A stretch of 64,000 bases of DNA from assembly GCA_965208575.1 (NCBI GenBank), contig CBDBOV010000002.1:576001-640000 (forward strand). Reading direction: 5' to 3'. The stretch comes from Spirochaetia bacterium. GTDB taxonomy: Bacteria > Spirochaetota > Spirochaetia > SZUA-6 > Bin103. The translations under genes and the position numbers were made by a program. Under the pieces are notes generated by a model that searched no databases, was not told the origin of the DNA, and saw nothing but the letters and a program-made list of their open reading frames with translations. Shown in pieces: positions 33,514-35,026 of the stretch; positions within the stretch are counted from its first letter, which is position 1; each line of letters starts with the position of its first letter.

Positions 33514-33974
33514 TCCCGTTGTCGGCGCGGCGGGTCATCGAGACCGCCCTGGAGGAGGATCTGGGGCTGGGCGATGTCACCGGCAGCGCCGTGGTGCCGG
33601 CCGGCAGCGAGTGCCGGGTGGCGGTGGTGGCGCGCGAGGCGCTGGTGGTGTGCGGCGCCGAGATCGCCGCCGCCGTGTTCTGGCGCCTCGACGCCGACCT
33701 GAACGTGGAGCCGGCGCTCGCCGACGGCGCCGACGCCGGCCCCGGCGACCGCGTGCTGTACGTTTCGGGCGCCGCGCGGCCGATCCTGGCGGCAGAGCGC
33801 ACCGCCCTCAACCTGCTGCAGCACCTGTCCGGCATCGCCACCACGACCCGCGCCTATGCCGACCGGCTGCGCGGCACCGCGGCGGCGGTGTGCGACACGC
33901 GCAAGACCACGCCCGGCCTGCGCGAGCTGGAGAAGTACGCGGTGCGCTGCGGCGGCGGGCGCAACCACCGCGCC
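33510..33974 (+). pseudogene. nadC: Quinolinate phosphoribosyltransferase, 5' part
   Basis: [55 protein letters not shown]. Confidence 0.92.
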
Positions 33975-34931
33975 GTGGACGCCATCGTGCGCGACGGGCC
34001 GCGCTTGGTGCGCGAGCTGCTGATCGACGACCTGCAGGTGGCGTTCGACCGCGACGCCGGCGGCGCGCTCCGCTTCACCCGCGAGGCGTCGCACTCCCGG
34101 CACCGCATCATCTACGCCAAGGACCATACCGGGCGCGCCATTCTGACCGCCCTGCACCGGCGGCTGGCGGAGCTGGCCGCGGCCGGCACCCTGCCCGGCG
34201 GCGGCAGCCTGACCGTGGCCACCGGCTGCTTCGCCGTCGACCTGCTCACCCTGTCGCACAGCTCGGTGGACTTCCTGGACCGCTACCGGCCGCTGAGCTG
34301 CATCGGCGCGCACGTACTGGACGTGGCCGCCGGCGAGGTGCGTCCGATCATGGCCAAGAAGACCGTCCTGGCCACCGGCGGCCTCGGCCAGGTCTACCTG
34401 CACAGCACCAACGACGCCGGCGCCTACGGCCACGGCGTGGCGATGGCCTACCGGGTCGGCGCGCGCGTCATCAACATGGAGTACGTGCAGTTCCATCCCA
34501 CCGTGTTCCACCGCCGCGGCGAGCGCCCGTTCCTGATCTCGGAGGCGGTGCGCGGCGAGGGCGGCGTGCTGATCAACCAGCAGGGCGAGGCCTTCATGGA
34601 GCGCTACCATCGCGACGGCTCGCTGGCGCCGCGCGACGTGATCTCCCGCTCCATCCACTCCGAGCTGCTGCGCGGGGCCAGCGACACCGTGTACATCGAC
34701 TTGGCCGGCGTCGACGCCGACTATGCGCGGCGCCGCTTCCCCACTATCAACGCCCGCCTGCTGGCCGCCGGCGTCGACATGACCCGCGAGCCGATCCCGG
34801 TGGTGCCGGCGGCGCACTACTCGTGCGGCGGCATCCACACCGACATGGCCGGCGACACCAACATCGCCCACCTGAGCGCCATTGGCGAGACCGCCTGCAC
34901 CGGCCTGCACGGCGCCAACCGGCTGGCCAGC
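33975..34931 (+). pseudogene. nadB: L-aspartate oxidase internal fragment inserted in nadC
   Basis: TREASHSRHRI, LATGGLG, MEYVQFHPT, LISEAVRGEG, LAPRDV, PAAHYSCGG, GETACTGLHGANRLAS. Confidence 0.92.
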
Positions 34932-35026
34932 ACCACCGCGCCTCGCTGGCCGACTGCGTCATGATCAAGGACAACCACATCGCGGTGGCCGGCGGCGTCG
35001 CCGCCGCGGTACGGCGCGCCCGCTGA
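34932..35026 (+). pseudogene. nadC: nadC continuation, then truncated
   Basis: [30 protein letters not shown]. Confidence 0.88.

Follow-up and report, generated by a model that had tools for sequence, protein, structure and literature searches.

An 11-bp repeat flanking a nadB fragment in a scrambled nadA-nadC-nadB locus of a Spirochaetia bacterium

In a 64,000-nucleotide stretch of the genome of a Spirochaetia bacterium (contig CBDBOV010000002.1, positions 576,001 to 640,000 of the forward strand; hereafter the window), a piece of nadB lies inside nadC between two copies of the 11-mer ACCACCGCGCC, at 33964-33974 and 34932-34942. Short direct repeats around an insert, with a gene fragment lacking its own promoter as that insert, are shared with transposon and IS duplications and with processed pseudogenes. 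The first-pass annotation regarded the repeat as a target-site duplication left by a staggered cut, and the insert as an internal piece of a host gene or mRNA copied into a new site. The question is whether the locus records the action of an insertion system. Several initial observations hold: both copies of the 11-mer are present, the insert is sense nadB, in frame at its left end and forming a NadC-NadB chimeric ORF according to translation and Pfam, and no transposase was found. Terminal inverted repeats are likewise missing from the insert ends, the best inverted pair nearby being 34 nt of GC-rich nadC sequence on both sides, 71% complementary.

The insertion is not the isolated event that had been supposed. 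It accounts for two of the six novel joints (J0 to J5, from left to right) of a 2.5 kb locus composed of five operon pieces, two of them inverted, with unrelated DNA at both outer sides. Comparison with an intact operon traced all five pieces to one 3.4-kb stretch of a parent nadA-nadC-nadB operon; four parental stretches are absent from the mosaic and one 11-bp re-copy is present. The left flank carries a methyltransferase gene (32141..32905, reverse strand; Pfam Methyltransf_11/25) in DNA of low GC content (54% in the GC profile), for which no match was found among 10 congeners at E<=1e-20. At J0 (32955/32956) this DNA stands against truncated nadA, the operon homology beginning at 32956. 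The first piece, S1, starts with the 3' two-thirds of nadA, the 5' third being absent (S1a, 32956..33509, forward strand; parent operon 1063-1616), whose protein covers positions 115-295 of 295 in the Pfam NadA profile, and continues with the 5' half of nadC, codons 1-155 (S1b, 33510..33974, forward strand). The nadA stop and the GTG start of nadC share bases (GTGA), an arrangement also present in the parent operon, and the S1 block of 1019 bp is 97.06% identical to positions 324138-323120 of contig C2.

The left copy of the 11-mer (33964..33974, forward strand) is nadC sequence ending at J1, and its final 4 bp, CGCC, also occur at the donor nadB breakpoint. It is followed by S2 (33975..34931, forward strand; parent approximately 2705-3661), an internal nadB segment of 957 bp or 319 codons. 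At J2 the right copy (34932..34942, forward strand) begins with ACC, the same 3 bp with which the nadB piece ends, and opens S3, 92 bp of nadC (34932..35023, forward strand; parent 2071-2162) with 96.7% identity to C2 323130-323039. S3 restarts nadC 11 bp ahead of the point at which S1 leaves it. Removal of the insert had been thought to restore continuous NadC; reading does resume after the second 11-mer, but for only 92 bp, and breaks again at 35023. Here, at J3, a 2-bp (GC) overlap leads into S4 (35022..35051, reverse strand), an inverted stretch that runs from parent position 831 down to 802, in the 5' part of nadA (30/30 identity, E=1.4e-11), which at 30 bp is, with the 92-bp S3, one of two very short pieces. 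The last piece, S5' (35052..35452, reverse strand), comprises the inverted nadB 3' end and approximately 60-85 bp of repeat-like sequence. Its nadB part (35139-35452) corresponds to parent 4079 down to 3767, with 95.5% identity over 314 bp to C2 321122-321434, and its repeat-like part is the sequence directly downstream of nadB in the relative G003. There the spacer 35050-35108 adjoins the nadB 3' end, with 82% copies elsewhere in G001 and G003. The right flank is an N-terminal fragment of an ABC-exporter paralogue cut at J5 (35453..35896, reverse strand); positions 35452-35500 are 85.7% identical to the 5' part of an ABC exporter gene at 815153-817063 of contig C5.

The intact operon used for comparison (copy 1) is collinear and lies on the same contig as the mosaic, 285 kb away. 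The identities given above, together with 96.3-96.6% for the nadB insert (957-973 bp; 96.55% for S2 itself, with 33 mismatches in 957 positions and zero gaps), place all mosaic pieces approximately 3-4% from this copy. Another collinear operon, copy 2, is decaying, with nadB split over three frames, and the only other copies of the S2 insert are the nadB genes of these two operons. Among the substitutions assigned to the window lineage, 17 of 24 affect the third position of a codon (binomial test against 1/3, P=1.9e-4), 19 being synonymous and 5 non-synonymous, and no stops or frameshifts occur in the 1,976 bp of S1 and S2. Because this divergence is mostly synonymous, the source was evidently a functional operon distinct from copy 1. 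The mosaic is most likely the wreck of a redundant third nadA-nadC-nadB copy. The same substitution pattern, combined with the intact frames, indicates that the scrambling is recent; the six joints therefore accumulated in little neutral time. The source DNA could have come from a sibling strain rather than from a resident copy, which would fit fragment capture as well as switching in situ.

The mosaic arrangement is absent from all 40 relatives compared, and the genome is metagenome-assembled with an estimated contamination of 5.75%. The locus might be a chimera formed during amplification or assembly of a multi-strain metagenome sample, and polymerase template switching in whole-genome amplification does yield microhomology chimeras with inverted pieces. 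Against this, two runs of the sample each yielded independent k-mer contigs with exact matches across J2, J3 and J4. In run X19, exact Logan contigs cover 34824-34990, spanning J2, and 34994-35187, spanning J3 and J4, at a depth of 18-19 compared with 11.8 and 17.8 in the unique flanks; in run X20 the corresponding values are 5.3 and 4-4.2. Moreover, the pieces are 3-4% off both other operon copies in the assembly and therefore are not mis-joined reads of those. Spanning sequence, which the first-pass annotation sought for both junctions of the insert, thus exists at single-copy depth for the right joint, while the left joint (33974/33975) is not bridged among the Logan pieces listed. Exact contigs extend 30 letters beyond J0 and J5, the criterion for bridging being 31 letters. 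Exact 35-mers across the right and left joints returned no records in metagenome_contigs, and that of the right joint returned none in genome_contigs. Among the records listed for runs X1 and X23, from other samples, there are parental-type pieces only, with 2-16 other letters, and no mosaic joint is bridged. An artefact is judged very unlikely.

Many sponge and coral metagenome runs are represented, with shares of 0.16-0.25, from which nothing firm about habitat follows.

The 11-mer itself is a common sequence. The genome contains 89 copies, or approximately 0.9 per 64 kb, and the window contains four, compared with 0.16 in shuffled sequences; the other two, at 8573 and 53521, lie in unrelated contexts. 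The excess over shuffled sequences would suit a recognition site, but the genome-wide number and the unrelated contexts led us to reject that reading of ACCACCGCGCC. Four families of exact 11-nt direct repeats occur in the same 1.1 kb, and the non-random feature of the ACCACCGCGCC repeat is its position exactly at the homology breakpoints. At the left site of nadB, copy 1 and genome G006 lack the 11-mer and read CAACCCCGCCGCC/GTGGAC, where the slash marks the breakpoint; at the right site copy 1, copy 2 and genome G007 lack it and read CAGCACC/TCGCTG. An intact nadB with the 11-mer at both positions, a sign of simple microhomology recombination, had been named as the outcome that would remove the need for a new mechanism, and only part of it is found, the donor sharing 8 of 11 bases on the left and 3 of 11 on the right. 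With CGCC on the left and ACC on the right common to the nadB donor, the only unambiguously duplicated nadC sequence within the 11-mer is ACCG, and S1 and S3 share between 4 and 11 bp of nadC.

Overlaps with the donor amount to 4 bp at J1, where the exact CGCC sits within an imperfect 10/15 match, 3 bp at J2 and 2 bp at J3. For random joints drawn from the same operon, the probabilities of overlaps of at least 4, at least 3 and at least 2 bp are 0.037, 0.085 and 0.21, giving a product of 6.7e-4. Microhomology was scored at J1, J2 and J3, the joints for which both partners can be compared with the parent operon, and copy 1 served as a proxy for a source operon 3-4% diverged from it, so that the junction microhomologies could differ by one base. 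The apparent 11-bp duplication is best read as two junction microhomologies, of 4 and 3 bp, and a short re-copied stretch, not as the mark of a clean staggered cut.

This result bears directly on the possibility of a dedicated or undescribed system that transfers copies of internal parts of host genes or mRNAs to new sites and leaves a staggered-cut duplication, by activities resembling those of transposases, Cas1 or reverse transcriptase (RT) in target-primed reverse transcription (TPRT). Candidate enzymes for such a role are indeed encoded: the genome has five near-identical group II intron copies with an intact 446-aa RT (active-site motif FADD), of which one sits in the window at a distance of 23 kb, together with a gene for Cas1. 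Group II intron RTs perform microhomology-mediated end joining (MMEJ), as well as snap-back synthesis, in vitro, according to the available part of the report of Park et al. 2022 (10.1101/2022.03.14.484287), and the insert is sense-strand and in frame. On the other side, only 4 of 11 bp are an unambiguous target duplication, and the locus has no intron, terminal inverted repeat or transposase. The donor is neither distant nor a transcript by necessity: it belongs to the neighbouring gene of one and the same operon copy, and in the intact operon the distance from the nadC breakpoint downstream to the nadB segment is 611 bp. Sense orientation then follows trivially from a donor in cis, and two neighbouring pieces are inverted. 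We consider such a system extremely unlikely.

Transposon, IS, intron and Cas1 readings were each rejected. A transposable element with target-site duplication does not match an insert of 319 NadB codons without transposase or integrase, bounded by a repeat that comes partly from the donor. Unlike transposon insertions and processed pseudogenes, the mosaic has no terminal repeats, transposase, poly(A) or transcript end, its donor is adjacent in cis, and the pieces around the insert are inverted and out of order. As to a retro-copy by TPRT, which is judged less firmly, the insert comes from within nadB and is tailless, and neighbouring pieces are antisense. Group II intron retrohoming was discarded since RF02005, at 9457-9673, is all that Rfam identifies in the window, and 32.9-35.9 kb gave no match. 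CRISPR Cas1-Cas2 spacer integration was excluded because the insert is 957 bp long and lies in a coding gene, no array is present, and Cas1 is on another contig.

Joining of fragments from a donor in cis by microhomology-mediated illegitimate events, without any dedicated insertion system, is very probably the origin of the mosaic. Within this frame, replicative template switching of the FoSTeS/MMBIR kind in a redundant operon copy is, on balance, probable. A growing 3' DNA end would leave nadC at the end of ACCACCGCGCC and re-anneal on nadB through CGCC, 957 nt of nadB, located 611 bp downstream within that operon copy, would serve as template, and the end would then switch back to nadC through ACC, 11 bp upstream of its exit point. 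More switches, or similar joins, would add the 92 bp of nadC, 30 bp of nadA in inverted orientation, and the nadB 3' end, likewise inverted, along with the flanking sequence downstream of it. The joints presumably formed in one event or a short burst, which the recency of the scrambling fits. The sources of the pieces, their orientations, the junction sequences and that recency come directly from the alignments; template switching is read from end products only. Templated break repair, which the first-pass annotation had offered as one of its alternatives, comes close to this reading.

The MMBIR signature, as described in the available text of Hastings, Ira and Lupski 2009 (PMC2621351), consists of discontinuous copies mixed with deletions and inversions, with joints at 2-5 bp microhomology. 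The present locus likewise combines copied segments, deletions and inversions at microhomologies in that range, with all templates nearby, and its short segments would imply a low-processivity polymerase and several template switches. The model was, in the parts covered, designed to account for human copy-number variants, kb to Mb in size, whereas 3.4 kb of a bacterial operon is involved here and the product is a pseudogene. In bacteria, template switching within a fork usually covers distances between a few hundred and a few thousand bp (Slack et al. 2006, PMC1428787, from the sections available). The stress-induced lac amplification of Escherichia coli treated in these sections uses short, often imperfect homologies (4-15 bp), comparable with the 10/15 match at J1, and one complex amplicon had a direct and an inverted joint (PMC1428787). 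It differs in that the amplicons were selected in the laboratory, are 7-32 kb long and mostly have a single joint, while the mosaic, a natural and unselected remnant, carries six joints and has lost sequence on balance.

End joining also produces similar overlaps of 2-4 bp, whether by Ku/LigD or by some other MMEJ activity. A nad operon copy, or imported sibling-strain DNA, might have been shattered by one or more double-strand breaks, after which Ku/LigD non-homologous end joining (NHEJ) or other microhomology-mediated joining might have re-ligated the pieces, with order and orientation left to chance, next to the methyltransferase DNA on one side and a broken ABC-exporter gene on the other. 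The genome encodes Ku at one locus (C5 579317-579862), with an ATP-dependent ligase gene approximately 0.4 kb downstream (C5 580225-580776) and three further ligase loci, the ligases being called from the DNA_ligase_A_M domain. Pieces were lost, reordered and inverted, both outer flanks are unrelated DNA, and a source lineage that stands 3% from the intact resident copy and shows a selection-like pattern of substitutions is compatible with DNA of a conspecific strain. Bacterial NHEJ has been found to capture a linear cassette at a chromosomal break without homology and in either orientation, with 5' overhangs filled and small deletions or fill-ins (Dupuy, Sauviac and Bruand 2019, PMC6379672, as far as the available text goes). 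That captured DNA was an electroporated cassette at an I-SceI cut, and local templated copies or an 11-bp re-copy are not described in the same available text. The overlap of 4-11 bp of nadC between S1 and S3 would require a staggered break of 8-11 nt with fill-in, or two source molecules; with staggered fill-in, the 4-bp and 3-bp donor matches are left as a coincidence of roughly 0.3^7, as estimated from random-joint match rates. The position of the donor 611 bp away in cis counts against random ligation as well, and we regard end joining as a somewhat unlikely origin.

A slower history was also considered, in which independent ordinary events accumulated over time in a redundant operon copy: a tandem duplication joining nadB 3664 to nadC 2071, a 620-bp deletion (2081/2701), inversions, and flanking deletions or insertions. 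Every joint type is ordinary if taken singly, copy 2 is a second decaying operon in this genome, and paralogous copies genome-wide differ at 451 indel sites with 1-25 bp overlaps, 55 of them low-copy. However, the deletion must begin 11 bp from the boundary of the duplication, for which we estimate a chance of approximately 1 in 100 with a 1.6-kb unit, and six joints contrast with the minimal point decay documented above for S1 and S2. Stepwise decay is therefore unlikely.

Replicative template switching also has a more radical variant, a single-step chromoanasynthesis-like event in which a low-processivity polymerase would repair a break by moving from one nearby template to another, using both strands, and recurring in the lineage and building chimeric frames such as NadC::NadB and ABC::NadB. 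Candidate polymerases would be a LigD-type enzyme or the RT encoded by the group II intron, which is resident here and evidently active. At another place on the contig a diverged nadB 3' fragment is interrupted by this intron, and the equivalent site lies approximately 19 bp from J5; both observations are compatible with this idea. The G2L4/group II intron RT work resembles the present case in that this enzyme class is present in the genome, anneals short 3'-end microhomologies and extends them, and by snap-back synthesis makes inverted copies; in the text available, the activity was demonstrated on oligonucleotides and plasmids, and nothing links the resident RT to the mosaic locus (10.1101/2022.03.14.484287). 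We hold the variant to be improbable; if true, it would represent a bacterial counterpart of Pol-theta templated insertions.

A recurrent process would be expected by the first-pass annotation to leave similar insertions elsewhere. The genome was compared with itself (megablast, word size 18, which misses copies below roughly 80-85% identity), and one or two further local-donor cases were found, the clearest having a 120-bp repeat and no fixed duplication; this scarcity again speaks against a dedicated system. The comparison flagged 47 'scrambled' groups, and the 4 loci inspected were rejected as comparable cases, being for the most part mobile elements nested in one another, with genes of DDE, Mu-like and tyrosine-recombinase type, or islands of toxin-antitoxin genes. 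Within the window, the ppk1 fragments that had been attributed to the same mechanism have a different anatomy, with duplicated gene 3' ends interleaved with toxin-antitoxin cassettes. Pfam searches over selected window ORFs did not recover the ftsK and restriction-modification fragments mentioned alongside them, the sole candidate being an Uma2 'putative restriction endonuclease' ORF at 61603-62274. Two 2,361-bp GH95 repeats (28993-31353 and 41075-43435) were rejected as a clean tandem duplication with 9.7 kb of captured filler, since each gene is complete and has diverged ends of its own; with 29 of 34 differences in the first 170 and last 30 bp, they look like paralogues homogenised by gene conversion.

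The rearrangement has created two chimeric reading frames. The first (33510..34964, forward strand) runs from the GTG at 33510 through NadC residues 1-155, ending in CGGGRNHR, and 319 in-frame NadB residues to a 10-aa tail, TTAPRWPTAS, and a stop. Pfam recognises QRPTase_N, QRPTase_C over its first 46 positions (of 169), and FAD_binding_2 over positions 71-413 of 414. It is judged a probable pseudogene product because most of the QRPTase C-terminal domain and both NadB ends are missing. The second, of 251 aa (35141-35896, reverse strand), has the ABC N-terminal fragment in frame with the inverted nadB 3' end, and its residues 168-246 match Pfam Succ_DH_flav_C.

The event belongs to a known kind. 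Natural bacterial cases of such rearrangement were not found among the top literature matches, and laboratory cases in E. coli are published (PMC1428787, in the part available). The mosaic provides a clean, datable natural bacterial example of multi-joint microhomology-mediated rearrangement. It also demonstrates that a convincing 'target-site duplication' can come from two junction microhomologies and a few re-copied bases, and therefore flanking repeats alone are insufficient as evidence of an integrase-like mechanism. For the bacterium itself, one intact operon for de novo NAD synthesis is retained, and the mosaic is thus a dispensable pseudogene. Chimeric ORFs of this type provide new genes with raw material, and they are a pitfall in the automatic annotation of metagenome-assembled genomes.

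The nadB fragment within nadC is part of a mosaic, the reshuffled remnant of a nadA-nadC-nadB operon, in which 2.5 kb holds five pieces of the operon and six novel joints, and four parental stretches are absent. Two further nadA-nadC-nadB operons are located on the minus strand of the same contig (C2). Copy 1 (C2 ~321.1-324.6 kb) is intact; on its sense-direction scale nadA occupies ~577-1620 and nadC 1617-2456, and nadB ends at 4087. Copy 2 (C2 304954-307957, or ~304.9-308 kb) is collinear and 84-85% identical to the window pieces. Its nadB aligns in three reading frames, the ORF listing shows an internal stop in its nadC, and NadA is unaligned over its first 82 residues; this copy looks broken, for which sequencing or assembly indels could also account.

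Relative to copy 1, piece S1 (32956-33974) corresponds to 1063-2081, the 3' part of nadA and the 5' half of nadC (97.06% identity), and S2 (33975-34931) is a gap-free match to internal nadB at about 2705-3661 (96.55%). It is followed by S3 (34932-35023), from nadC (2071-2162, 96.7%), and by two inverted pieces: S4 (35022-35051), from the 5' part of nadA (831 down to 802, 30/30 identical), and S5' (35052-35452), comprising the nadB 3' end (4079 down to 3767, 95.5% over 314 bp) and 60-85 bp of downstream flank. The latter stretch is homologous to the sequence directly 3' of nadB in the relative G003, and 82% copies of it are found elsewhere in G003 and in another relative, G001. The mosaic is bordered on the left by low-GC DNA with a methyltransferase gene and on the right by part of an ABC-exporter paralogue, an N-terminal fragment that continues in frame into the inverted nadB end.

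The first-pass annotation interpreted the nadB fragment as an insertion with an 11-bp target-site duplication, made by an undescribed system. Its sequence facts were right: ACCACCGCGCC is present at 33964-33974 and 34932-34942, a NadC-NadB frame is found, and neither a transposase (Pfam) nor a terminal inverted repeat of note (repeat search) was detected at the mosaic locus. The chimeric frame starts with GTG at 33510, overlapping the nadA stop as GTGA, and encodes 155 NadC residues (ending ...CGGGRNHR), followed by 319 from NadB and an out-of-frame tail of 10 residues; past the second 11-mer the nadC frame resumes for 30 residues before a stop. Pfam domains of the chimera are QRPTase_N, the first 46 of the 169 positions of QRPTase_C, and positions 71-413 of 414 of FAD_binding_2. 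Scrambling created a second fusion frame, a 251-aa ORF at 35141-35896 on the minus strand, linking the N-terminal transmembrane part of the ABC-exporter paralogue to the last ~100 NadB residues. The 11-mer itself is unremarkable, since four exact 11-nt direct-repeat families occur within the same 1.1 kb and ACCACCGCGCC is found 89 times in the 6.5-Mb genome; its placement is what counts.

At the left joint (J1, S1/S2) the nadC parent reads ...CGCAACCACCGCGCC|TCGCTC and the nadB parent ...GCCAACCCCGCCGCC|GTGGAC. The window agrees with nadC up to ...ACCACCG; then comes CGCC, four bases that nadC and nadB have in common and that sit within a 10-of-15 imperfect match between them. At the right joint (J2, S2/S3) the nadB parent reads ...CAGCACC|TCGCTG and the window ...CAGCACC ACCGCGCC TCGCTG, with ACC common to both partners. 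Only ACCG among the 11 bases is therefore unambiguous nadC sequence present twice; the remainder is donor microhomology of 4 bp at the left junction and 3 bp at the right. A 2-bp overlap is found at J3, where nadC meets inverted nadA. Microhomology was scored at these three of the six joints, with copy 1 as a stand-in for the unseen source; for random joints from the same operon, an overlap of 4 bp or more has a probability of 0.037, one of 3 bp or more 0.085 and one of 2 bp or more 0.21 (product 6.7e-4). The nadB breakpoint sequences are the same in copy 1 and the relative G006 at the left site, and in copy 1, copy 2 and the relative G007 at the right site, so the source operon, not itself seen, very probably had them too. 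In the parent operon, 611 bp separate the nadC breakpoint from the donor nadB start.

The donor lies in cis at a distance of a few hundred bp, the 2-4 bp overlaps sit inside longer imperfect matches, two pieces are as short as 30 and 92 bp, some pieces are inverted, and loss and re-copying occur at one locus. These features match the signature of microhomology-mediated template switching described in PMC2621351 and, for bacteria, in PMC1428787, and the locus appears to work like a FoSTeS/MMBIR-type complex rearrangement. Natural bacterial multi-joint cases were absent from the top literature hits, which is weak evidence of absence. In such an event, the 3' end would depart from nadC after ...GCGCC and anneal on nadB via CGCC; after copying 957 nt of nadB it would return to nadC via ACC, 11 bp upstream of its exit, copy 92 nt and make two more switches, onto the opposite strand. 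The main rival is end joining of existing DNA ends. Ku is present in the genome with an ATP-dependent ligase adjacent, and bacterial NHEJ can capture fragments in either orientation (PMC6379672); however, ligating existing ends leaves the re-copied nadC bases and the two-ended donor microhomology unexplained.

Transposon, intron-homing and Cas1 classes were rejected after their defining features were tested and not found. A retro-copy appears unlikely: the nadB insert is internal to the gene and has no tail, and neighbouring pieces are antisense. A dedicated insertion system has no positive evidence in its favour; a candidate for one would be a complete group II intron at 9377-11379 (plus strand; Rfam RF02005 at 9457-9673), intron RTs being capable of MMEJ and snap-back synthesis in vitro (10.1101/2022.03.14.484287). 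Its RT ORF (9963-11303, 446 aa) has FADD in place of YADD at the active-site motif. Five near-identical copies (99.6-100% identity) on four contigs indicate that the intron has evidently been mobile recently; their 5' exon flanks have a loose common motif, ...CTCGTT/TTGGTT. The intron has no tie to the mosaic, save one: a second copy (C2 295289-297292) interrupts a nadB 3' fragment that has diverged (C2 295097-297420, ~80% DNA identity, NadB residues roughly 408-517), and the equivalent site in S5' is at ~35433, about 19 bp from the joint with the exporter flank (J5, 35452). This proximity could be a coincidence or mark a fragile site.

All scorable pieces differ from copy 1 by 3-4.5%, and this uniformity suggests that they share one source. 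With G001 as an outgroup, derived sites common to the mosaic and copy 1 number 24, against 8 for the mosaic and G006 and 5 for copy 1 and G006, which points to a source in a sister lineage of copy 1; it would be either a third resident copy or DNA of a closely related strain. Substitutions were polarised with G006 over 1,896 sites, giving small counts: 5/2/17 at codon positions 1/2/3 in the window lineage (19 synonymous, 5 non-synonymous) and 3/1/29 in the copy 1 lineage (30 synonymous, 3 non-synonymous). In the window lineage 17 of 24 fall at third positions, where neutral decay predicts one third (P=1.9e-4), and the synonymous to non-synonymous ratios of the two lineages do not differ significantly (Fisher P=0.26). 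S1 and S2 are also free of stops and frameshifts. Most of the divergence therefore dates from a time when the source operon still worked, and the scrambling is recent. A stepwise history of independent events would have to place six joints in very little neutral time, and its deletion would have to begin 11 bp from a duplication boundary.

Among the matches listed, none of the 40 relatives searched has the mosaic, and in every relative listed the two blocks map ~600 bp apart, the parental arrangement. The syntenic site is contiguous in G007 (PIN-GH95-GH31, 92-bp gap) and holds a single GH95 in G006, and in G007 and G003 the ABC-exporter pair that comes after the mosaic here is found at another location; the mosaic thus lies within ~12 kb specific to this genome, a metagenome-assembled one (95% completeness, 5.75% contamination). 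Exact 35-mers across the left and right joints had no match in the metagenome contig collection, nor did that across the right joint in the genome contig collection. Logan contigs from two runs of one sample (X19 and X20) were compared with the window by exact match, with 31 letters required for bridging. As to read support for the junctions, the right joint is spanned (34824-34990), and J3 and J4 (S4/S5') are crossed by 34994-35187, but none of the pieces listed bridges the left joint. A further contig covers 35158-35452; those at 32600-32985 and 35423-35900 extend 30 letters beyond J0 (left flank/S1) and before J5, respectively, one under the criterion. Depth in X19 was 18-19, compared with 11.8-17.8 at unique flanks; in X20 the corresponding values were 5.3 and 4-4.2. 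The two runs may have supplied the assembly itself, in which case the contigs represent another assembler applied to the same reads.

Other duplications are present in the window. Two full-length GH95 glycosidase genes (28974-31370 and 41035-43452) flank 9.7 kb with the mosaic; G007 and G006 have one each at this site. Of their 34 differences, 5 are spread over the central ~2.1 kb and 29 lie in the first 170 or last 30 bp of the repeat, a clustering at the ends that suggests gene conversion between the paralogues. At 2020-6302, gene-end duplicates alternate with toxin-antitoxin cassettes: Gp49/HigB-like and HI1420 antidote genes (2343-2975), an RHH gene (3450-3671), BrnA (4427-4852), and Gp49 and HTH genes (4933-5543) accompany 3'-end fragments of ppk1 (3246-3402, 4005-4311; intact gene at 6010-8166) and of a PD-(D/E)XK gene (5766-5942). 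The arrangement resembles the outcome of cassettes inserting repeatedly between a convergent gene pair, a gene-end copy being carried each time. A ~210-bp repeat at 17236-17445, which may be a MITE, an end of some larger element or of another nature, has >30 copies (98-99% identity) on all six contigs. Tandem-like internal repeats at 27628-28064 (offsets ~90-220 bp, 82-89% identity, from self-matches in the window-versus-genome BLAST) lie at, and immediately upstream of, the 5' end (27890) of a MoxR-type AAA gene (26685-27890, minus strand).

A megablast self-comparison of the genome gave 47 non-collinear groups among 127 with at least three segments; four were sampled, and nested mobile elements or toxin-antitoxin islands accounted for most of them. 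A targeted scan for inserts separating two blocks that adjoin each other (-3 to +25 bp) in a paralogous copy returned 451 sites, 55 of them low-copy; 29 inserts had a paralogue of their own, and 7 donors lay within 10 kb of the parent. Three of these are views of the nad locus, three represent one event on contig C5, and one is at C2 385 kb. In the C5 mosaic (187130-188371, duplicated at 202246-203487), six segments drawn from C5 167233-171483 are reordered; one of them, 495 bp long, comes from 1.5 kb downstream and sits between two blocks whose parental counterparts have a 5-bp overlap. A ~120-bp repeat with three copies in the parent is involved, and this mosaic may be repeat-mediated. Insertions with a local donor thus recur, rarely, at the sensitivity of this search. 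In G001 the nadB 3' end is present a second time as a 148-bp copy (L013, G001 contig C1 387000-399500, 7307-7454 vs 8965-9274), 96.6% identical to the window piece. It lies 1.5 kb downstream from where G001's nadB ends, and the ORFs in the interval are unannotated; stray nadB 3' fragments therefore recur in the genus.
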